A program made the position numbers and the translations under genes. Of a stretch of 64,000 bases of DNA, positions 1,136-11,898 are shown one piece after another. Below the pieces are notes generated by a model. The model ran no database searches. It was not told the DNA's origin and saw only the letters and a program-made list of their open reading frames with translations. This DNA is from Minisyncoccia bacterium (GTDB lineage Bacteria > Patescibacteriota > Minisyncoccia > Phycocordibacterales > UBA918). The stretch covers positions 66,526 through 130,525 of the forward strand of contig JBGSSW010000016.1 of NCBI GenBank assembly GCA_041736805.1. Direction: 5' to 3'. Numbering within the stretch: position 1 is the first letter of the stretch; each line of letters opens with the position of its first letter.

Positions 1136-1954
1136 TTATAAAACGTCCTTTTTAAAGGATTCTATAGTCTCCAAAAGGAAACTATAGGACGGTTTAGGAC
1201 GAAACGATTTATTAACTTGGTTCGATTTAAGTCTTTCGTAACTTCTTTTAAGCATCTTCTCTGAGCAAAATAAGTTATCTATGTCGCTTTGTAAAACAGG
1301 GTTTTGGAAATGGACACTTTTTGCAGAAGCTATTGGAAAAAAGGCTTTACTAAGAGGTTTAATAAAACCATAGTTGTTTAGGGTCTTACGAACTGAAAAA
1401 GGTTCCCTCGTACCAGTTTTTTGCTTTATATAATTTAGGATATCAATTGTGGGGATGTCCTTGTTTGGATTTTTTAAAATATGTTGCCAAAAATGATAAG
1501 GCTGACTACCATCCTGTGGTTTAAGTAGTGTAAACTCATTATTAAAAACAATACCATCTTTAAAATTCATCGTTATTATGAACCGAGGAAACAACGAAAG
1601 GGGTACTACAATTTTAGTAAATTTTTGAAAGTTAATTGTAAAAGTTGCTATCGCACCGTAAATGATTTCATCATTATCATCTGGCATAGACACATCAAAA
1701 GTCTTCGTTCCAATTGCCAGCTTTGATACTGCCTGATGTGCTTCCAAAAACCGCAATACTGCATATTTTTCAGTGCCATCTTGTCCCTCGTTTCCACCAT
1801 CAACTTCACCCAAATACATTGAAAGCTCCGCTGACTTTGCGTCAACATTAACTGCTTTCTCTAATGCTAGAAAGACGTCACGTATGTGGCGAGAGAAGTT
1901 TTTTGGGTAAACTGTAATATCCTGCATATCATTAAGTATAATAGCAATTCTCAT
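1136..1954 (-). CDS. Hypothetical protein (272 aa), accessory/phage-like
   Basis: Long ORF co-oriented with the recombinase. Very low GC. No recognisable motif. Confidence 0.45.
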   Translation of the reverse strand: MRIAIILNDMQDITVYPKNFSRHIRDVFLALEKAVNVDAKSAELSMYLGEVDGGNEGQDGTEKYAVLRFLEAHQAVSKLAIGTKTFDVSMPDDNDEIIYGAIATFTINFQKFTKIVVPLSLFPRFIITMNFKDGIVFNNEFTLLKPQDGSQPYHFWQHILKNPNKDIPTIDILNYIKQKTGTREPFSVRKTLNNYGFIKPLSKAFFPIASAKSVHFQNPVLQSDIDNLFCSEKMLKRSYERLKSNQVNKSFRPKPSYSFLLETIESFKKDVL

Positions 1955-2279
1955 CGGACAAAGTTAGATGTTTAATGAACGTAATCCTGCTTATTACCCT
2001 GTGAATAACTATAATCGAAAAAAGTATTACTAGATTTAAGAATAATAGCCATATTTAATATAGCTATTTTAAGAATTTAATTACTAATTTTAAGAATGCA
2101 TTATAGAAGCAAATTCATAGTTTAAATAGTTATGCGAGTTACGTGAGTTTTTAGTTGAACTCTCCTCTTTGTATAGTGCGTTAAGGTGTTGGGTTGTGGC
2201 GACCAAATACAAAAATCTTATTGGATATGTCGCCACGCTAATAAGGTTTTTGTATTTACAACTAGCCCTCAACAACACT

Positions 2280-2738
2280 CAATCGTTTATCTGGGAATGA
2301 TAAACGTGCTCTTTTAATCCAGATGCTGGCACTGACTGCAACTTGTCACCCAGCGAAGCCTAGTGTGGAGGGGTGGATTTTACTACCTAGGCTTTCCCGT
2401 CATTGTCGGAAGTAAGCAAAGTCGATTATTAGTAACGCTTGCCAATGAGGGAACCAGAGACGAATTGTGACGATACTCAATCACCTCGGTAACGCAATAC
2501 CTGGACGAGGAAGTAGTCTCTTAATCCACCAAGCAGAATGGAACACTCACTTGTCTTGTCGCTGACCGTACTTACTTTGAATTAACAAGGTTGGAAGGAG
2601 AAATCCAAGGAGACGGAAGTACGAGAGAACACACCAAGTGCCGATAGTCATTCGAAAGGAGTTAAATTGTATCACTCATAATGCGACCGAATACCGCTCT
2701 TTAGCGTAAGGGAAAAAGCTTTACCACTTTTATCAACA
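2280..2738. ncRNA. Candidate structured noncoding RNA (~450 nt, ORF-free on both strands, GC about 48% within a ~30% GC neighbourhood). Family and strand unknown.
   Basis: No ORF of 60 aa or more on either strand between 2279 and 2738. There is an abrupt GC rise and many short complementary segments. I found no match to RNase P, tmRNA or tRNA consensus. Confidence 0.25.
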
Positions 2739-2937
2739 ATGTGGCGGAGCTTCGCTCCTAATTGCTATATATGTATGACAAAAAATAATGTAATAACAAT
2801 AATTAAAGTAAGTAATTTTTATTACCGTTTTTTGTTGTGTCTATCTATTTTATATAAACGTAGACAGCTATCCGATGCAATCAGTCGTTCACTAACGGTA
2901 TACACATTACAAATCAATTACGTAGAATCACGTATTT

Positions 2938-3534
2938 TTGCGTGTAAATTACAGTATGTTTAATTCACTTAACTTAAAAGAAATAACTGCAATCGAACTA
3001 AAATATTTAGGAAATACCAATGTTCAAATTGCTGAAAAAATTGACATCCCTGCACGCACTGTAGAGGGTTGGTTTATTAGTGGAGGTAAGCTTGAAGTCG
3101 AGTATCACGATTATTCAAAGCGTTTAAATAAATTACGTTTTGAAAACGTCTCTGAGCAAATTGCTTTAAACGACCAAGAAGTTTTGATTACCACTACAAA
3201 TGTAGTGCGTCACTTCGCTCGCAGACTACAACCAAGAGAAGTTACGCTAGTTCGTGAAGATGGTAATGCTGTGGTAGATGAAAACGGAAAAGCCAAAACT
3301 GTTTTGGTTGAACCAGACGCTCGTTTCACTATGAATGACTTTAAGACGGCTTGGCAGATACAACGCATTATGCAAGGCAAGCCAATTGACTACGTAAAGC
3401 AAGAAATTGAGACGACAAGCTTTGAACACGATGTGGTTATGAAAGAGCTTGGTTTGACAACAGAAGACTTCTCTGACGAAAGAATTGATGAAACAACCAA
3501 ACTGATCACGGACTATTTACTTAATTGTAAATAA
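2938..3534 (+). CDS. Hypothetical protein with a possible N-terminal HTH (phage-like); the true start may be the Met at 2956
   Basis: ORF track. The segment LNLKEITAIELKYLGNTNVQIAEKIDIPARTVEGW resembles a sigma-region-4/terminase-small-subunit type HTH. Confidence 0.45.
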   Translation: MRVNYSMFNSLNLKEITAIELKYLGNTNVQIAEKIDIPARTVEGWFISGGKLEVEYHDYSKRLNKLRFENVSEQIALNDQEVLITTTNVVRHFARRLQPREVTLVREDGNAVVDENGKAKTVLVEPDARFTMNDFKTAWQIQRIMQGKPIDYVKQEIETTSFEHDVVMKELGLTTEDFSDERIDETTKLITDYLLNCK

Positions 3535-3761
3535 TCTGCTTAGTTTGAGATTCTGCAATATCAATATATAATCTCTATACAACTGAATATAGACCTAACC
3601 CGTTAGTTTCGACTGACGGTATGGTTGAAAAACGCACGATACAAGAGACCCTGTCATATTAGGGCGTATCGTGCGTTGCCACTGGAAACGGTGGTAGGGG
3701 TTACCGAAAGGTGTCCTCCTAATGTGGCAGGTTTTGTTGTACCTGCTTCTAACTTTTAATT

Positions 3762-4598: not shown

Positions 4599-7283
4599 TT
4601 AACTCAAAATTGAGATGAGCCATTCGTAAGAAGCTTCACCTTGCTTTCTTTCAACATTATTCATTACACGCCCGTGCTTGACTGCATTTCTGTATTCCTT
4701 GAGTTGCAAGAAGTGCTTCTCGACTTCACCCCTAGAGCCAAAGACGCTCTCAAAAATATCCCAGTTTACAGATATAGTTTCTTGGTAATCCATTATATCG
4801 CAATAGTCAAAACGGTTTCTTGCACTAATAGGCTGACTTCTTTCTGCTGGGTGACGTTTAAATCTTTGCTCTAACTTTTGTTCAACACGTTGCTTTACAC
4901 CATTTGAAACTTTAGCGTCCCAATAATCAGCACCGAAAGCTTTACTCAAATGGGAATCAATAAAGTCTCTCAAATTTAATTCTAATTCATCAACTGCTGT
5001 TTCAGGTGCAGTTTCAAGAACTTCTTCGGTGTCAGGACTCAAGCCAATTTTGCTTCTAATTACCCTAATGATACTTTTTTCTCTTTCTTCGAGAAACCCA
5101 TCGAAGTTATCACTTTGAAGTAGAGCAAGTCCAACCGCACTAATTGTGTGCGACTCCAGTACTTCTGTAAGCGCCTGTTCATTGGATGAGTATTTGTCAG
5201 TTAAAAACTCATTTATGTAGACAGAAGGTACTTTATCCCTTTTTCTCATATTAGTTTCTTTTGACAACCAGGTCATATTAAGAACTGAATTAATATACGG
5301 ATGTTGCGAAAAACCAGCACTGTTAGACTTTGGGAAAATATGGTCTTTGTCATTACTTCTAGCCATCTCTAAAGCGTGTCCTGTTTCAAAATCTACAGCT
5401 CCAGCTAAAGCAATTAATGACATCACACCTTTGTATATTGCATTAGAATGGTTGTTTACCTCTTTTAAATCAAGATTTGAAAGGTCATTTCTGGCTTGTG
5501 TCACTACTTTAGGAATATTTTCTTCACCATTGAACCAATTCATAACCTCCTTATAGTCAGAAGTCATTTGAGTCTCTGCAGACGATGAGTAAGCGTTAGT
5601 AAAAATTGCTGACCAATACCACTGATCAATCTTTGACTGGCACAATAATCTGTCTGCTCTTGTGGCCGCTTCCATATTCAAAGCTGTGAGTACAGGAATC
5701 ATTGGAGAAAACGGCACCTCCTTATCATTTAATACACCGTAACCTGTACGTAAGTTTTCGAGCAAGTTAAAGGTTGATTCGAGATTTTCAACCACTTGAT
5801 TCCAGAGCGTGATAAATTCTTCAGCTGAAGATAGGGACAAGTTCTCGTATAAAGAAAGTAAATCTTTCTTCTTTGCTGAACTTGAGGGATGATGGATTAA
5901 TGAAAGGCACTGAAAAATGAACATCTTGGTTTTTTCAGACTTACAGTAGTTATTGATTCCTTCATAGTTCTCAAGTACCGATTCCCAGAGATTTCTCAAG
6001 TTGATGCCATTCCTAAGCAGTTTTGCGATTAGCAAATCAAATGTGCCAAGTGGTTTACCTTCAGTGTTAATTTTTTCAAAAATAACTGATACTTGTGCTA
6101 AGTCCATACTGCTAGGCAGAACAACAAACGGTATCTGAAAGCCTTGCCACATATGCCTGACTCTGGATTCAATCAATCTTTTTAGGTCTCTTAATTTCTC
6201 ATACGGTAAGTCAGCTTCAGTTGTATGTAAGTAGTCTTCAAGTCCGTCTAGCCATTCAAATGAATTTGAGAGCTTGTTAATTGGAAATAACAAACTTTCA
6301 TAGGTTTCAATGTTTGACAACTCTCTATCCTTCACAGTAATAATCCTCTCACTATTTTGTTCAAGAATAAAATTCTTAAAATCAATATAGTAATATGAAT
6401 TTTTAGAAGTACCCTTAAGAGGAAAATCGGGTGACTTAATCGCATAGTAAAGTGCGGTACAACGCTGTTGCCCATCCAGTATTATAAAATCAGTTCGACT
6501 CAATGAATTTGACGAACCTTGAATCGCAATCAACTCTAAAGGGGCTTGCTCATCTGATTCCCACAGTAAAAAGGCTCCGACATAGTAATCATTAAAGATT
6601 GATTCCAGAAGTGACCGCACGCTTTCTCTATTCCAATCAAAATATCTTTGGAAATTAGGAATCGCCCATCTGGTATCTAAATTTTCTATAATTCGTGCGA
6701 CATCAATTCTGTCCGGGCTACTTAAAGCGTGGGGAGAAAAACTGACAGTCGATAAATCTACTGATGTTACAAAATGCTTCAATCTTTCAGTTTCGAGTAC
6801 AGTGTCTACATCATAGTTTTCTGATGTAACAATTCTTTCAAAATCAGCAGAATTAATTTTCCTTATGCCACCCTGTAGATACGGCCCCCAAGAATAGGGA
6901 TTTTTGATAAATGACAAGTTGTTTAGTAGCGGTTTTATTGGCTTTGGTCTATCAAAAATTAATATGTCCGCTAAGTCCAGTCTGAACATATCCTCACTAC
7001 TAAAATAATTGTGAGAAGTATCACTTTCTCTATAAGCGGATGATGTGGCAGTAGCTGTACCAACAAAATGCTGATTTTCACCACCTAAGTAAAAAACAAT
7101 CTTGTCTCCAGGGACAATCTTAGCTCTTGCGGCTGTTCTAGGGTGTAAACCCCAAACACTCTTCGACATTAAATCAGTATAGATTTCAGATGCAGAAATC
7201 CTGTTGCCTGTACTGTCCTGATGCGACGTTATTATTGATATATAGTTACTCATAATGATGATTACTTTGAGTAAGCATATCAT
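4599..7283 (-). CDS. GmrSD-like type IV restriction endonuclease fusion: N-terminal EVE/PUA-like domain, DUF262 (DGQQR), DUF1524 (His-Me finger, DHIFP) and a C-terminal HEPN-like Rx4H motif. The probable true start is the Met at 7253.
   Basis: VWGLHPRTAARAKIVPGDKIVFYLGG...FVGTATATSSAY matches the EVE pattern (W.G....ARN....pGD...FY). IILDGQQRCTALYYAI is the DUF262 signature. DKDHIFPKS...N...L is DUF1524 HNH-like. The terminal LKEYRNAVKHGR is a HEPN Rx4-6H motif. Confidence 0.7.
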   Translation of the reverse strand: MICLLKVIIIMSNYISIITSHQDSTGNRISASEIYTDLMSKSVWGLHPRTAARAKIVPGDKIVFYLGGENQHFVGTATATSSAYRESDTSHNYFSSEDMFRLDLADILIFDRPKPIKPLLNNLSFIKNPYSWGPYLQGGIRKINSADFERIVTSENYDVDTVLETERLKHFVTSVDLSTVSFSPHALSSPDRIDVARIIENLDTRWAIPNFQRYFDWNRESVRSLLESIFNDYYVGAFLLWESDEQAPLELIAIQGSSNSLSRTDFIILDGQQRCTALYYAIKSPDFPLKGTSKNSYYYIDFKNFILEQNSERIITVKDRELSNIETYESLLFPINKLSNSFEWLDGLEDYLHTTEADLPYEKLRDLKRLIESRVRHMWQGFQIPFVVLPSSMDLAQVSVIFEKINTEGKPLGTFDLLIAKLLRNGINLRNLWESVLENYEGINNYCKSEKTKMFIFQCLSLIHHPSSSAKKKDLLSLYENLSLSSAEEFITLWNQVVENLESTFNLLENLRTGYGVLNDKEVPFSPMIPVLTALNMEAATRADRLLCQSKIDQWYWSAIFTNAYSSSAETQMTSDYKEVMNWFNGEENIPKVVTQARNDLSNLDLKEVNNHSNAIYKGVMSLIALAGAVDFETGHALEMARSNDKDHIFPKSNSAGFSQHPYINSVLNMTWLSKETNMRKRDKVPSVYINEFLTDKYSSNEQALTEVLESHTISAVGLALLQSDNFDGFLEEREKSIIRVIRSKIGLSPDTEEVLETAPETAVDELELNLRDFIDSHLSKAFGADYWDAKVSNGVKQRVEQKLEQRFKRHPAERSQPISARNRFDYCDIMDYQETISVNWDIFESVFGSRGEVEKHFLQLKEYRNAVKHGRVMNNVERKQGEASYEWLISILS

Positions 7284-7321
7284 TATAATTCATTATTTTC
7301 AGCTAAAATGATATAGTTTAA

Positions 7322-7939
7322 ATGACATTTATTTATATGGTTAAATACATAATTTTTCGATACCTAACTAACGCAGATTTTTTTAATATCTATAAACAAC
7401 CTGGTACGGAGTTAGGTGGTGGTGGTCAGGCTTATATTGATTTTCCTGCACAAGATGTATCTCTAGAGAAATGGGGTAAGTTTTTTGAAGACGCAAATAG
7501 TATTGTTTGTGACTCTGGAGAACAAGGCCCTATCTGGTATGTGCCACTAAATAGTATCGGTGTACAAGGTTCTCAAGAGGTAAAGATTTACCAGAGAAGA
7601 GCACAAAGTATATGCATTGCTTCACAACGAATTACTAGCACTAGAGAAAATCGAGTTAAGTCGTGGCATCCAGAAAATGGCTTTCCAGAACCTGCCGACC
7701 CATTAGAACGTAATCAACTTCCTCAGAATCTTCTTGTTTATCTACTTAGAACTAGCAACGATGAATTTTGGGCTGGATGGTCATTAAATCAAGTTCCTGC
7801 GAGAGACAATAATGCGATACAGCTAATTGCTGAAATGCACAATGAGGCTATGTCAGAAGGTCATTCTGGTTTTATTGAACCAACTGACACCCTACTGTTT
7901 GATTCAACTGATAAGGAAAAACCCTTCTTTACATCTTAA
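7322..7939 (+). CDS. Hypothetical protein (205 aa); candidate restriction endonuclease partner of the adjacent methyltransferases
   Basis: It lies between the type IV gene and the two methyltransferases, converging on them with an 11-bp overlap. It contains a possible D...EVK PD-(D/E)xK-like arrangement (CDSGEQG...SQEVKIY). The assignment rests mainly on genomic context. Confidence 0.4.
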   Translation: MTFIYMVKYIIFRYLTNADFFNIYKQPGTELGGGGQAYIDFPAQDVSLEKWGKFFEDANSIVCDSGEQGPIWYVPLNSIGVQGSQEVKIYQRRAQSICIASQRITSTRENRVKSWHPENGFPEPADPLERNQLPQNLLVYLLRTSNDEFWAGWSLNQVPARDNNAIQLIAEMHNEAMSEGHSGFIEPTDTLLFDSTDKEKPFFTS

Positions 7940-9005
7940 CCTCAATCAAATACTCAGTTAAGTTTTTACCAAGCTTGCTAGCGTTACTTTTAAATCGCTT
8001 ATGACTTATTTCCTCTAATGAAACTTCTCCGTATTTTTTTAATCCTACGAGTAACTCCTTTATCGGAATTAAACCATCTTCACTATAACTAATTAAAAAG
8101 CTATTGCATTTGACACCAGTCAAAATTTTATCAAAGGAGTCCCAAATTTTTGTTTTGGTGCAAAAATTTGAATATTGGTCTCGCCAAGGTCTTAGTCCAC
8201 TCACACCAATGGCTTGAGGGTCATCCTCCCGTGCCAACGTTTCTAGAATATGGTAGTTAGCCGCATATTGTCTTTTCATATATGGAGGGTCAATGTAACA
8301 AACACTGCACTGAATTGTATTTGCTAAATCTTCAGCATATCCCTTATAAACATTGTGCTTTGATAATTTTGAATCAGCAACAAAATTTGTTGCTATTGAC
8401 GGCTTTAAATACAGAACATCATTTGCTCGCCCAGTCAGCTTGGAAAGATAGTGACCGTAAGTTCCTGAAATATTTGCTACGTCATTTACCGCCAAGATTA
8501 AATCATTCAATAGTAGTGAATGCTCGATGTCATTAATTACTTTTTCTTGGTAAGCGTTTCTTATCCAATTTCTAATTGCATCAATTTTAGAAGCATTGTG
8601 TGGAGAAAAGTAGTTACGTGGCCCATCACCAGAGCTAGGCTTTCCTTCAATACAAAACTCTTTATAAAAATACTTTTTTTGTGGCTTAAGATTGTTTAGA
8701 TAAAGTAAAACATCTACATAGCCGTTTTCATTGTCATTTTTATTCAGCTTTTGATTAATAAATTTATTGGCTTTTTTAAAAGTAGGAGTCTTATCAATTA
8801 AAAGCACTACACGAGCGTGATGGTATGAATATGTCATAACATCTGTCGCAATTACAGAAAAACCCCGCTCTTTTAAAGCTTTAGAAACTGTAGCTGTACC
8901 ACACATCAAATCACAAACCACGTCTCCTTCCTTTGTAATTGATTCAATTTTGTCTACAATTTTGTCTACAATTTTACTTTTAGAACCAATATACCTATGT
9001 CCCAT
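7929..9005 (-). CDS. DNA methyltransferase (N6-adenine or N4-cytosine) with motif I FxGxG-like near the N-terminus and DPPY motif IV near the C-terminus (alpha-class order)
   Basis: VVCDLMCGTATVS (AdoMet-binding motif) ... CYIDPPYMKRQY (DPPY catalytic motif). Confidence 0.8.
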   Translation of the reverse strand: MGHRYIGSKSKIVDKIVDKIESITKEGDVVCDLMCGTATVSKALKERGFSVIATDVMTYSYHHARVVLLIDKTPTFKKANKFINQKLNKNDNENGYVDVLLYLNNLKPQKKYFYKEFCIEGKPSSGDGPRNYFSPHNASKIDAIRNWIRNAYQEKVINDIEHSLLLNDLILAVNDVANISGTYGHYLSKLTGRANDVLYLKPSIATNFVADSKLSKHNVYKGYAEDLANTIQCSVCYIDPPYMKRQYAANYHILETLAREDDPQAIGVSGLRPWRDQYSNFCTKTKIWDSFDKILTGVKCNSFLISYSEDGLIPIKELLVGLKKYGEVSLEEISHKRFKSNASKLGKNLTEYLIEVKM

Positions 9006-9006
9006 T

Positions 9007-10746
9007 TTAAAATATGTCGTTAACCGAAACGTTAGTCAGTGCTTTAATAGGAAGCAGGCTATCAACTTTATTAAAAGTTTCGTATATAACCCCGTAATCC
9101 TTTTTGGTTAGACCAAACAAAGTTGCCACTAGACGCTCTATTTTAGCATCAATGGACTTTGGTACAACCTTATTGTTTTCAAGGTATGGCTTTAAAGTTG
9201 AGACAATTGCCTTTGAAATCTTTCCAAAAGATGCAGATTTTATATCTGGGAATGGTAAGTTAAGAATTTGACCTTGTGTTAAATAAGGATGAGAGCGCCA
9301 TTCAGTTTCACCGTATTTTTTGAGTAAAAAATAATACATCGCTCTTGAGTTAATTACACTCAACACTAACTCAATTGGAGCCGTCTCACTTGCCGGACTT
9401 TCTTTAGGTCTAAACATATACACAACCTGATTTGTGAGCGATTGTGTGTAATCAATAGATGCTGTAATTCCAACGCCAGTTTTGCGGACAATAATTTTTG
9501 GTTCGTAGTAAACACTAATATCCTTGTAGTTTATTCCTTTATTATCGACAGAAATCCAGTACTCAGAAGATATTGAGTAGCGTCGAATACTCTCACCTAC
9601 TAGGAGGGGCTTTGATCCTTTAAATTTTTTCTTACTAACAATATTTTGAACTTCGACTTTAGATAAGTCTGAATTTTTGGCGCAATGGTTACACTTAGGG
9701 CGCAGACTGTTTGGGTATGGGTTCCACTGACTACAGTAGTCACACTTATATACCTTCCCTGATTTAGACAATTCTACCCCTCTTGATGAAGATACGAAGT
9801 CACCAATAACTTTCTTACTAGAAGACAGCTTTTGTATTACCTTTAATTCATTGTCCTTTGTGTCTATATCGAAAAGGTATAGACCAGTTTCAGAAAAACG
9901 CTTTTGAAAAACTTTGTGTGACAACTTAGAGTTTGCATCCTCGTATGATAATTCATTCTTGAGAATTAGCTTTCTAGTTTCAAGATTCAACCGCATACAC
10001 TCAACTTCATTCTCAGCTGAAGGTACAGTGTTTTTAAATATTATTATCGTACATCCTCTACTAACGTCTTTAAATATTTTTTCACCAAGTCGTGCTATAT
10101 ATTTAATTTCTGTATTTTCAGTAAGTAATTTCCTAAGAACCTTTTTTTCGTGACTAAAAATTGAATCTGGAATTATGAAGGCACAATATCCACCTTTACG
10201 AACAATTCTTAGTGATAGCTCAATAAATAAATCAGATGAGTCAAACTGCCCTTTATTTAAAGTGTAGTCGCTGTGATTTAATTCCTTAACATAATGACTC
10301 ATATCCGCTCCCCAGGGAGGGTTGGCAACCAAAACATCAAAACCATCTTGTGCATTAAAATGACTCTGAAGTGACTTGATATCAAATATACTCAGTCTAC
10401 TTTCATAAGGAAATAAGGCATTTATTTTCAGAGTGTTTTTAGCAGAAATTAACTTAGAAGTGGTTTCCACTGCGTATTTATCAATATCTGTACCATACAA
10501 ATCAAAATGATTTGAAAGTTGATTTCGAGACAAGTATCTATTTACCGAGTGAAGTAATTCACCCTCTCCACAAGCGGGGTCAATTATTTTGAGACTATCG
10601 ACTTGTCTGTAAGCGCCTCTAGAAATATCTTCAGATAAAAAGTGTAGTACTTTACTGACCAGAAAATCCGCAAGGGGTTTTGGTGTATATACAATACCTA
10701 AATCACTTTTATACTGTGTTTTTTTATTTTTAGTGACTAAAACCAT
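9007..10746 (-). CDS. N6-adenine DNA methyltransferase, gamma-class (Eco57I/TaqI-like, NPPW motif) with a C-terminal target-recognition region containing a Cys4 zinc ribbon
   Basis: IIDPACGEGELL (motif I) ... LVANPPWGADMSHY (motif IV NPPW) ... CDYCSQW...CNHCAKN. Confidence 0.8.
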   Translation of the reverse strand: MVLVTKNKKTQYKSDLGIVYTPKPLADFLVSKVLHFLSEDISRGAYRQVDSLKIIDPACGEGELLHSVNRYLSRNQLSNHFDLYGTDIDKYAVETTSKLISAKNTLKINALFPYESRLSIFDIKSLQSHFNAQDGFDVLVANPPWGADMSHYVKELNHSDYTLNKGQFDSSDLFIELSLRIVRKGGYCAFIIPDSIFSHEKKVLRKLLTENTEIKYIARLGEKIFKDVSRGCTIIIFKNTVPSAENEVECMRLNLETRKLILKNELSYEDANSKLSHKVFQKRFSETGLYLFDIDTKDNELKVIQKLSSSKKVIGDFVSSSRGVELSKSGKVYKCDYCSQWNPYPNSLRPKCNHCAKNSDLSKVEVQNIVSKKKFKGSKPLLVGESIRRYSISSEYWISVDNKGINYKDISVYYEPKIIVRKTGVGITASIDYTQSLTNQVVYMFRPKESPASETAPIELVLSVINSRAMYYFLLKKYGETEWRSHPYLTQGQILNLPFPDIKSASFGKISKAIVSTLKPYLENNKVVPKSIDAKIERLVATLFGLTKKDYGVIYETFNKVDSLLPIKALTNVSVNDIF

Positions 10747-11410
10747 TACTTAATTTTAGCACGTCACTCATTCATTTTTTGTAGTTATCCAAAATTTTAG
10801 TATTGTAAATTAAGGATATTATTAGTATAGGTATCTACATTTGCTTCATCTTAAACTTTGTAAGTGACCACTCATTCTTAGAACGTCCATTGCCTGGCTT
10901 CTTTCCAGTAAACGCTCCCATTCTACCCAGTTTACGTTTATAAAGGTGCTTAGATTGCGGAGCAAATCAAAAAACGCCTTAGGGTGTTTTTTGTTTGTGA
11001 CGCGGGAGAACGTGACTAAATGTCACGTTCGTTAGGATTCGAAGCCGGATTGAGCTAGATTTGAGCTTGCGAAAAATCTAGCCAATTTGGTTACTGGTCG
11101 TGTAACGACCGAAATTCCTACCGCGGAGCAAACTTGACACATCCTTTTGATAAGATAATGTTCTTATGGGTTCGGCATCGACCGGACATCTCTAGGAAGG
11201 TGTAATGAATCATATTCGTATAGTCACCCAGCACATGTTGTGCATCGGAGCACCTGTAGTCGGGGCTCTCGCTCTCACCCAAATCAGTCTTTGGCTAGGT
11301 AATGGTCCAGTGGTACTAAATCCATTTGTCTGTGCCCTAGCCCTGGTTGCCTCGCCGTTTCTATACATGATGGGAGTGCGAATGAAGGGCGGGGCCTGAA
11401 TGTTGTTACT

Positions 11411-11455
11411 ACCGCTTGTACAGACACCGCGTCTGTATGAGCGGTTTCTGTTTTT
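11411..11455 (+). terminator. Rho-independent terminator-like hairpin followed by a T-run
   Basis: accgcttgtacagacaccgcgtctgtatgagcggt forms an extended stem of about 13 bp and is followed by ttctgttttt. Confidence 0.45.
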
Positions 11456-11501
11456 ATACACAAGCGGTTCGAACATCCTTCACCCAGCGGAGCAAAATAG
11501 G
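11448..11501. repeat. Left copy of an ~55-bp imperfect direct repeat (putative att-like boundary)
   Basis: tttttatacacaagcggttcgaacatccttcacccagcggagcaaaa aligns with 16781-16836 (ttattttatacaaaaaacgcagcggttcgagcatcacacacctagcggagtaaa). Partial copies occur at 11117-11146 and 17117-17132. Confidence 0.5.
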
Positions 11502-11870
11502 ATAACCCTTCACTTCAGTCATGAGGTCGAAGGTTTTTGCCTAATGTGGTAACTTTCATCGGCATCAACTAAATTCTCTAGTTGAAGACTTAATGACTCG
11601 CTGTCTGTGTCTTAATTCTTTCTCTTTCTTGTCATATTCATCCTGAGCAATTCTCCACTTTGGTACGGAGTTTCTCTTTACATTCTAATTCTGAACTTAT
11701 CTATGAAAACAAATTCAGTTACCTTCTCTAACAGGGCGTTTTTCCATTAGACTTAAGGTTTTAATACCACTTGCCATTTAAATGATTCCAACTTTTATGA
11801 CTTACAAATCTTTAATTTGTTAATGTGGATAATAAACAATTTATACTTTAATAATTGATATTATAAAGTT

Positions 11871-11898
11871 TGATTAATTGTTCATTAACTTAATTAAC
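11871..11898. promoter_or_regulatory. AT-rich TTAATTAA-containing operator-like motif upstream of the ClpP-like gene, followed by RBS GAGGTG at 11899-11904
   Basis: tgattaattgttcattaacttaattaac. A related motif is repeated upstream of the 13262 gene. Confidence 0.3.

Follow-up and report, generated by a model that had tools for sequence, protein, structure and literature searches.

The EGFOA RNAs (Rfam RF02955) were described by Weinberg et al. 2017 (PMC5737381) and are classed by Rfam as a stand-alone small RNA; no function has been reported for them in the literature. Two members have been solved by cryo-electron microscopy (cryo-EM), as a trimer and as a strand-exchanged dimer, using constructs of less than 200 nt; the RNA transcripts of two members adopt defined tertiary structures that use ribose contacts, and members of the family form trimers, hexamers and dimers in vitro (bioRxiv 10.64898/2026.07.01.735769). 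The locus described here lies in a 64,000-nt stretch of a Minisyncoccia bacterium (contig JBGSSW010000016.1, positions 66,526 to 130,525; hereafter the window), in which an earlier note had flagged a GC-rich block free of open reading frames (ORFs), at positions 2280-2738, as a candidate large structured RNA on a mobile element. Analysis of the block indicated that its core is very probably a divergent member of EGFOA on the + strand, and the best-supported reading of the sequence is a stand-alone structured EGFOA RNA in the backbone of a mobile element driven by a large serine recombinase. No new RNA class is involved: the locus holds a divergent representative of a family already known. A flag raised on composition had nevertheless led to a true structured-RNA locus, as indicated by the family match, the helices and the covarying pseudoknots of the core.

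The Rfam scan of the 64-kb window at gathering thresholds gave the LOOT RNA downstream of the block as its sole match, and EGFOA was not listed. When positions 1900-3000 were scanned on both strands at E up to 10, the EGFOA model (length 108 nt, gathering score 37.7 bits) matched 2381-2523 on the + strand with 33.1 bits (E 5.6e-4 in this 1.1 kb), and apart from one spurious match nothing else was obtained. ROOL, GOLLD, HEARO/OMEGA, raiA and OLE, the ornate classes with which the block had been associated, gave no match in either scan, and the RNA turned out to belong to the already described EGFOA. A related allele, 97% identical (L032; related loci are given L numbers), scored 37.9 bits and passes the EGFOA cut-off. 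R1, a covariance model made from the sequences of 35 other EGFOA RNAs with the window's alleles left out, gave its only real match in the 64 kb at 2375-2530 (31.2 bits, E about 1.5e-7). A search pattern made of the invariant bases of the family, CCGUC and the 17-nt loop GGUAA.GC...ACCUGG in their order and spacing, matched the window once (2397-2504), with 0 matches in 100 shuffles; the invariant columns are common to the window RNA and 37 other sequences. The same pattern retrieved 25 genome, 4 viral and 36 metagenome loci, and Rfam confirmed 21 of the 29 loci of the first set.

Alignment of the EGFOA sequences revealed two long-range pairings, both deduced in this analysis and absent from the Rfam model. 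In pseudoknot 1 the four bases that follow CCGUC (NNNG) pair with CNNN in the 17-nt loop, and the two strands are Watson-Crick complementary in 42 of 42 true EGFOA matches and in 0 of 17 chance pattern matches, a filter that split the two groups completely. Six types of this helix were found, GUAG/CUAC, CUAG/CUAG, CUGG/CCAG, AUGG/CCAU, CUCG/CGAG and, in the window, AUUG/CAAU, and it is 100% paired in alignment A3. In pseudoknot 2 an upstream YCCAG(AU) element pairs with the CUGGR that closes the loop (UCCAG and CUGGA in the window); the outer pair is U-A in all six lineages with a loop-final A, window included, while the lineages with a loop-final G carry CCCAG, with two exceptions. The placement of the CCcAG element at CCUAG 2386-2390, as in the Rfam alignment, was rejected because only UCCAG 2318-2322 gives five Watson-Crick pairs with CUGGA together with the covariation of the family. 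Comparative analysis thus showed both predicted long-range pairings of the window RNA to be retained through compensatory changes.

In the alignment of the 35 other members, 86% of the cells of the four nested helices and pseudoknot 1 are paired, compared with 30-45% when the partners are slid, and the covariation score of the family alignment is 0.62 vs 0.21 in shuffles. Since G-U combinations at paired positions far exceed A-C combinations (63 vs 13), one strand, the + strand in the window, is the folded strand. A lack of homologues and covariation had been named in the earlier note as an argument against a structured RNA; both were found for the EGFOA core. Membership in the family is accepted because of the match to the family-specific model R1, the helices and the two covarying pseudoknots, despite the score of the window allele below the curated cut-off. 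The Rfam model was also seen to lack, besides the two pseudoknots, a conserved 3' hairpin with its YUGU motif (alignment A3, loci L002-L075). RNAalifold, applied to an extended Firmicutes alignment, proposed that the core pairs with the 3' tail; these long-range pairings were not adopted, as they showed only invariant or one-sided changes. Direct repeats D3 and D7-D9 had suggested another, degenerate EGFOA copy, which was discarded since no second match to the model was obtained at E up to 10, and a viral locus found with a longer-P1 pattern (L076) was discarded because of its failure in the pseudoknot test and its score of 18.7 bits. The search for targets complementary to the conserved loop gave chance level in the window.

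The GC content of 2280-2738 is 0.444, and that of the adjacent flanks is 0.308 (1955-2279) and 0.302 (2739-2937). The mean of the window is 0.385 (standard deviation, sd, 0.039 in 459-nt windows), so the excess of the block is 1.5 sd, and 7% of windows are equally or more GC-rich; the contrast is therefore one with the AT-rich intergenic flanks and not with the genome. The composition step is real but smaller than first claimed, the block being a GC-normal centre between AT-rich control regions in a gap of about 1 kb. Of the rise from about 30% to about 48% described before, the lower figure agrees with the flanks (0.30-0.31) but the block reaches 0.444 and not 0.48, and GC over the whole mobile region is not low, at 0.38 instead of 0.30. 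The supposed exact coincidence of the block with an ORF-free span was likewise correct in part: the longest ORF inside, with both strands considered, has 42-43 aa, and stops occur in all six frames, but the gene-free gap, from 1955 to 2937/2955 (983 nt), is about twice as long as the block, which forms its middle half. The gap is bordered on the left by a 272-aa gene (- strand, start 1954) and on the right by a 192-aa gene (+ strand, from 2956). The position given for the block, between recombinase-side genes and phage-like ORFs, agrees with the large serine recombinase on its left and the small-terminase-like 192-aa gene on its right, and no transfer RNA (tRNA) or transfer-messenger RNA was found in the window by ARAGORN and no RNase P or signal recognition particle RNA by Rfam, as the inspection by eye had indicated.

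Only about 200-240 nt of the block (2284/2318-2521/2542) are tied to EGFOA by sequence, helices and the two covarying pseudoknots, and the EGFOA domain spans at least 2318-2521. Thus the conserved structured core bears out the proposal of a structured RNA on a mobile element, but not at the size of about 450 nt. Judging from the alignments, the RNA is probably longer than the 108-nt database model, as conservation was found past that model in every subfamily compared (blocks of 240-460 nt): from -88 to +245 in Firmicutes, about 240 nt in the Lysinibacillus group and up to 460 nt in hypersaline-lake viruses, where additional flanking hairpins show compensatory changes. In most subfamilies a C-rich/G-rich hairpin and then YUGU follow immediately 3' of the core. 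In view of these conserved blocks in the other subfamilies (240-460 nt), a single RNA of about 450 nt is plausible in the window, and we give even chances to one long transcript of roughly 450-550 nt.

Two side observations bear on the limits of the unit. Interlineage homology breaks about 88 nt upstream of the start of the Rfam match and 245 nt downstream, so that a block of about 330 nt acts as a discrete unit. In an Aeribacillus locus (L006) a truncated serine recombinase ORF (4862-6070, +) shares its strand with the RNA (6051-6177) and extends directly into the beginning of the conserved block.

The alternative that survives best is a short EGFOA RNA only, of about 240-280 nt (about 2284-2560), with 2560-2738 being something separate, such as a small RNA, a protein-binding region or a remnant; we consider this possible, with clearly less weight than the even chances given to the long transcript. 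In several subfamilies a hairpin with a U-rich tail occurs 110-170 nt past CCGUC, with a clear terminator there in L060, the constructs solved by cryo-EM were shorter than 200 nt (bioRxiv 10.64898/2026.07.01.735769), and nothing links 2560-2738 to the EGFOA family. A short transcript is, however, at odds with the lack of any terminator-like site at 2522-2745 in the window, with the uniform conservation through 2800 among the alleles and with the conserved blocks of up to 460 nt in other subfamilies. The features recognised in the locus and its island are collected in Table 1.

Table 1. Features of the EGFOA locus and of the surrounding island, in window positions.
Feature	Position	Strand	Basis
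Divergent, AT-rich control region separating the 272-aa gene (-) from the RNA (+)	1955-2160		GC 0.26-0.28
Three to four direct repeats containing TTAAGAAT, spacing 21-54 nt	~2026-2097		Repeat families D2, D5, D10
Interleaved inverted repeats (A-B-A'-B'): 8-bp GC-rich GUGGCGAC 2196-2203 / GUCGCCAC 2229-2236; 18-nt AT-rich arm 2205-2222 / 2240-2257	2196-2257	+	
8-bp hairpin 2284-2291 / 2299-2306, then U-run into UCCAGAU	2284-2316	+	Terminator-like match
Pseudoknot 2, 5' strand UCCAG (within UCCAGAU, about 2317-2323); partner CUGGA 2501-2505	2318-2322	+	Lineage covariation
Two hairpins inserted between UCCAGAU and CCGUC: GCUGG 2325-2329 / CCAGC 2350-2354; AAGCCUAG 2356-2363 / CUAGGCUU 2387-2394	2325-2394	+	Minimum free energy fold
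Putative EGFOA core	2397-2521	+	Rfam and R1 matches, pseudoknot test
CCGUC	2397-2401	+	Family invariant
Pseudoknot 1, AUUG / CAAU	2402-2405 / 2495-2498	+	Complementarity in 42/42 family matches
P1, long, 12-position stem	2406-2417 / 2437-2448	+	Five pair-preserving substitutions
P2, 6 bp, AGAGAC / GUCUCU	2456-2461 / 2516-2521	+	Rfam alignment
P3, 4 bp	2464-2467 / 2478-2481	+	Rfam alignment
P4, 5 bp, CCUCG / CGAGG	2484-2488 / 2506-2510	+	Rfam alignment
Conserved 17-nt loop inside P4	2489-2505	+	Family invariant
Weak counterpart of family 3' hairpin and YUGU: UCCA 2525-2528 / UGGA 2539-2542, then CUUGUCUUGUC 2549-2559	2525-2559	+	By eye, against 3' tails of 20 other EGFOA loci
Lineage-specific GC-rich 3' extension, predicted hairpins	2545-2738	+	94-99% conserved among three alleles (100-nt bins)
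Candidate 3' end: GGAGC-UUCG-GCUCC hairpin 2746-2758; AT-rich GUAAUAA 2790-2796 / UUAUUAC 2819-2825, then U6	2746-2833	+	Sequence reading, inverted repeat I2
192-aa protein, N-terminal helix-turn-helix, small-terminase-like	2956-3534	+	Homologue context, weak fold match
LOOT RNA (RF03000), second structured RNA of the backbone	3592-3716	+	73.3 bits vs gathering score 46.4
Defence cargo: 894-aa protein (EVE, GmrSD_N, HEPN matches), then D12-class and Eco57I/TaqI-type adenine methyltransferases	4599-10746		

Alignment of the alleles revealed substitutions that mostly respect the fold. All five substitutions in P1 preserve or improve pairing, 2367 G to A in the inserted hairpins converts a G-U into an A-U pair, 2528 A to G retains its pair as G-U, and the remaining substitutions of the block are mostly unpaired or wobble-compatible on the + strand. 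The 3' extension holds two possible compensatory doubles, at 2653/2658 (C-G to U-A, closing a GAAA loop) and at 2625/2630. In the hairpin at 2284-2306 the stem is free of allele substitutions, all three lying in the 7-nt loop, and a similar hairpin with a U-run lies 5' of the core in L013, L017 and L054; because of this recurrence in three other subfamilies the hairpin is assigned to the RNA unit and not to an upstream terminator, although the assignment, made by comparison, is not proven. A single hairpin occupies the place of the two inserted ones in the Brevibacillus-type and L024-type RNAs.

Upstream of the core, the repeats containing TTAAGAAT look like operators or iterons. The interleaved repeats at 2196-2257 (inverted repeat I1, 94% complementary) are present in the alleles L031 and L032, and their two pairs cannot form together as simple hairpins; the single substitution among alleles in this region, 2239 U to C, turns a U-G into a C-G pair. 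They may bind a protein or form the 5' leader of the RNA. At the other end, neither the hairpin at 2746-2758 nor that at 2790-2825 passes the filter for G+C-rich terminators. An 11-nt inverted repeat that brackets the block (I14, 2298-2308 / 2725-2735) was set aside, being at chance level (16 such pairs in 1.1 kb) and competing with the supported local hairpin.

The island that carries the RNA is integrated at tRNA-Asn. Its large serine recombinase (500-509 aa) is encoded just left of the window start beside the tRNA, which the 3' end of the recombinase gene overlaps. The backbone consists, in order, of the recombinase, a 60-aa gene, the 272-aa gene, the RNA block, the 192-aa gene, LOOT, a gene for a 170-aa zinc-ribbon membrane protein and an 80-aa gene. 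The cargo that follows differs between alleles, with a NACHT ATPase in L032 and other genes in L031, and host genes restart near 20 kb of the window. The far end of the island would be marked by a copy of the tRNA-Asn 3' end, but none was found. LOOT is also present in L031, L032 and L033, i.e. in all island variants; the promoter-like site just upstream of it (3545-3572) is the best of the region, and a terminator-like hairpin follows at 3726-3747. The island has another gap poor in ORFs, about 1.1 kb long (10750-11897) and GC-richer at its centre, which gave no Rfam match at E up to 1; it carries GCGGAGCAAA three times (~10957, 11123 and 11487) and a small hydrophobic ORF at ~11207-11400.

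Distant homologues of the 192-aa protein (37% identity) are encoded directly upstream of phrog_2 large terminases, and the predicted model of the protein (pLDDT, predicted local distance difference test, 75) weakly matches the phage protein nonamer 2ao9 (E 0.097, TM 0.31/0.48), which has been cited as a putative small terminase. Sigma70_r4_2 matches were found in 3 of 7 members of the family, and no Pfam or PHROG terminase match was obtained for the 192-aa protein. Its gene is preceded by a promoter-like site at 2899-2928. No capsid or large terminase was identified in the window island. A small terminase without a large terminase is typical of phage satellites. Because the island has a small-terminase-like protein but no large terminase, the gene content suggests a phage satellite that borrows the packaging machinery of a helper.

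The 272-aa and 192-aa proteins that flank the RNA are very rare, as judged from exact look-up and homologue searches, which gave one identical contig (L030), the related islands L031, L032 and L033 and a few short metagenome contigs that lack the RNA. As to the BLASTN search for homologues called for in the earlier note, neither phage nor plasmid collections gave a match to 2150-2800, and the only homologues of the sequence flanking the core were alleles 96-100% identical. Viral contigs scanned with the island recombinase gave no relatives. In L031 and L032 the block is 97-98% identical vs 94-95% for the neighbouring genes. BLAST comparison with L033 revealed that window positions 1949-3539, a 1.6-kb module of the RNA block and the 192-aa gene, are swapped there for about 450 nt of unrelated sequence.

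EGFOA loci of other lineages, among them mobile elements of other phyla, likewise lie in gene-free gaps, of 586-2743 nt in 22 other loci. A large serine recombinase is encoded upstream in 18 of 42 EGFOA loci and in 0 of 17 control loci; it is divergent from the RNA in all of the 18 but L006, and the recombinases beside EGFOA are only 20-31% identical between lineages. In the Firmicutes islands the order is a host rRNA-methyltransferase gene, the recombinase (leftward), EGFOA (rightward) and defence-type cargo, for example AAA_21 and HNH, a TIR protein or an FRG protein. Other neighbours of EGFOA include tyrosine integrases, ParA, a cytosine methylase, insertion sequence (IS) elements, a cell-wall hydrolase, and a large terminase with portal. 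The last occurs in a hypersaline-lake virus (L026 661-791 / L028 12149-12273), where about 300 nt separate EGFOA from the large terminase and portal genes downstream of it, in a 1.4-kb gap without a recognisable small terminase. Four Paenibacillus loci (L002, L004, L011 and L020), at a conserved chromosomal site, have an intact EGFOA (66-71 bits) and next to it a truncated serine recombinase gene or none, so that the RNA seems to outlive the recombinase. One metagenome contig (L065) carries two EGFOA copies in direct orientation (2940-3069 and 7120-7249, both -), 4.2 kb apart, with an IS110 transposase and a serine-recombinase fragment between them, an arrangement that looks like the tandem accretion of two islands.

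A stand-alone EGFOA RNA could work in the element as follows. The transcript would start in or after the AT-rich control region common to the recombinase operon, take in the 2284-2306 hairpin and the lineage-specific 3' extension and end at the hairpins of 2746-2833. Its core would fold into a compact tertiary structure, probably self-associating as in the two members solved by cryo-EM. The RNA might then serve the element itself, for example by controlling maintenance, excision or helper-dependent transfer, as a scaffold or regulator that binds a protein of the element or of its helper. Because the RNA travels with the integration module and not with a particular cargo gene, we tentatively favour service to the element, at odds well short of even; action on one neighbouring gene is less likely. 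The wider idea that EGFOA is a partner of serine-recombinase-mobilised defence islands or satellites, acting as an oligomeric scaffold for excision control or, like pRNA, for hijacking the packaging of a helper, is more doubtful still; it would explain why the recombinase and EGFOA are the only parts common to islands of different phyla. Taken together, with the identity weighted most, the EGFOA identity, the long transcript and the element-serving role are regarded as likely.

Several results weigh against this reading. With regard to identity, the window allele is under the curated Rfam cut-off (33.1 vs 37.7 bits), UCCAG lies 79 nt upstream of CCGUC where most relatives have 10-30 nt, and the chance of finding this 5-mer in 130 nt is about 12%. 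The folding energy of the block is hardly better than that of shuffles and alike on both strands (z -1.9 and -2.1). With regard to the long transcript, no distant homologue was found for the 5' 40 nt and the 3' 220 nt of the block, the only flank homologues of the core being the nearly identical alleles, and no convincing sigma-70 promoter or canonical terminator was found for the RNA. As to the role, its basis is position, and the link to the recombinase is not obligatory, since L033 retains the recombinase, a 272-aa homologue and LOOT without EGFOA, and the Paenibacillus RNAs stand beside decayed or missing recombinase genes.

A cis-acting leader, i.e. an attenuator or a processive antitermination element like the put or EAR RNAs, that controls the terminase-like gene, LOOT and the cargo was considered unlikely. 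In its favour are the orientation of the RNA toward the downstream genes and the hairpins that separate the RNA from the 192-aa gene; in about 10 of 15 lineages the RNA is followed within 0.3-1.3 kb by genes on its own strand, and it is conserved regardless of which gene is downstream. However, this co-orientation (10/15) is no different from chance, the downstream genes are convergent in five lineages (Paenibacillus, Lysinibacillus, the L024 type, L003 and L065), the 192-aa gene has a promoter-like site of its own, and a leader does not agree with the Rfam class of stand-alone small RNA.

Quite improbable, and more so than a leader, is a packaging module, in which an oligomeric, pRNA-like RNA or a pac/cos marker would be used with the terminase-like protein during mobilisation by a helper phage. 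This idea draws on the exchange of the RNA block and the small-terminase-like gene as one module, on the position of the hypersaline-lake virus EGFOA upstream of a large terminase, with the phrog_2 terminase family in both contexts, and on the trimers, hexamers and dimers formed by family members in vitro (bioRxiv 10.64898/2026.07.01.735769). Most EGFOA loci are nevertheless without nearby packaging genes, homologues of the 192-aa protein occur elsewhere without the RNA, the window island lacks an identified capsid or large terminase, and the proposed likeness to pRNA comes from what is known of phi29.

That the conserved structure functions as single-stranded DNA, for example as a single-strand origin of, or a transfer-origin-like site on, the excised element, is very unlikely. 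The mobility of the elements, one of which adjoins ParA, and the iteron-like repeats nearby would fit it, and comparative analysis cannot tell whether the folded strand is RNA or DNA; but the RNA transcripts of two members fold with ribose contacts (bioRxiv 10.64898/2026.07.01.735769), two pseudoknots and an invariant 17-nt loop are typical of RNA tertiary folds, and no relaxase or rolling-circle Rep gene was found among the contexts examined. A decayed protein-coding gene or a chance fluctuation of composition, to which the GC excess of only 1.5 sd and the unremarkable folding z-scores would point and which the earlier note had allowed for as an explanation of the region, is hardly credible in view of the specific family match, the helices and the two covarying pseudoknots of the core, the stops in all six frames with a longest ORF of 42-43 aa, the conservation of the block above that of adjacent genes and the six substitutions in the longest ORF (-, 2547-2675) at codon positions 1, 3, 1, 1, 2 and 3, i.e. 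without third-position bias.

EGFOA is an orphan structured RNA for which three-dimensional assemblies were reported in a 2026 preprint (bioRxiv 10.64898/2026.07.01.735769). The locus shows that the family extends beyond detection by the Rfam model and adds evidence for two covarying pseudoknots and for longer transcripts; its main value lies in its context and in the two pseudoknots that it helped to expose. The setting of EGFOA is repeatable, beside a recombinase in the backbone of mobile islands with anti-phage genes, and here it forms one exchangeable module with a terminase-like gene. Because of this repeatable recombinase and terminase-like setting in mobile islands, the function of EGFOA becomes testable.

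Compared with known systems, the phi29 pRNA resembles EGFOA in its oligomerisation and in a short, covarying loop pairing of 4 bp, and in two EGFOA lineages the RNA also has terminase genes as neighbours; this is a likeness in the possible mode of action and not a family relationship. There is no similarity of sequence or model, most EGFOA loci are without packaging genes and the 4-bp pairing of EGFOA may be intra- or intermolecular. The ROOL, GOLLD, OLE and raiA RNAs are, like EGFOA, highly structured, ORF-free and borne on mobile elements, and the in-vitro self-assembly of EGFOA members is a further likeness. They differ in that no covariance-model match was obtained and the EGFOA core is much smaller, and the EGFOA assemblies reported are open trimers and dimers, not cages (bioRxiv 10.64898/2026.07.01.735769).

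The Firmicutes islands at rumA/rlmD-like genes (Brevibacillus, Paenibacillaceae and Vallitaleaceae; L007, L019, L022, L009 and L072) have the same arrangement as the window island, with the junction, the outward recombinase, the divergent EGFOA and variable defence genes. Their recombinases are about 21% identical to that of the window island and their target is an rRNA-methyltransferase gene instead of tRNA-Asn; they have no genes between recombinase and RNA, no terminase-like gene and no LOOT, and their RNA block is about 330 nt long, with a GC-rich hairpin at its end.

The closest system is EGFOA RF02955 itself. The window RNA differs from it in a P1 of 43 nt instead of about 14, in its score (33.1 vs 37.7), in the two inserted hairpins and about 220 nt of additional 3' sequence, and in the pair AUUG/CAAU, which is not in the other 39 loci. 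It shares with the family CCGUC, the 17-nt loop, P1-P4, the long gene-free gap and both proposed pseudoknots, and its orientation on the + strand is consistent with a stand-alone RNA.

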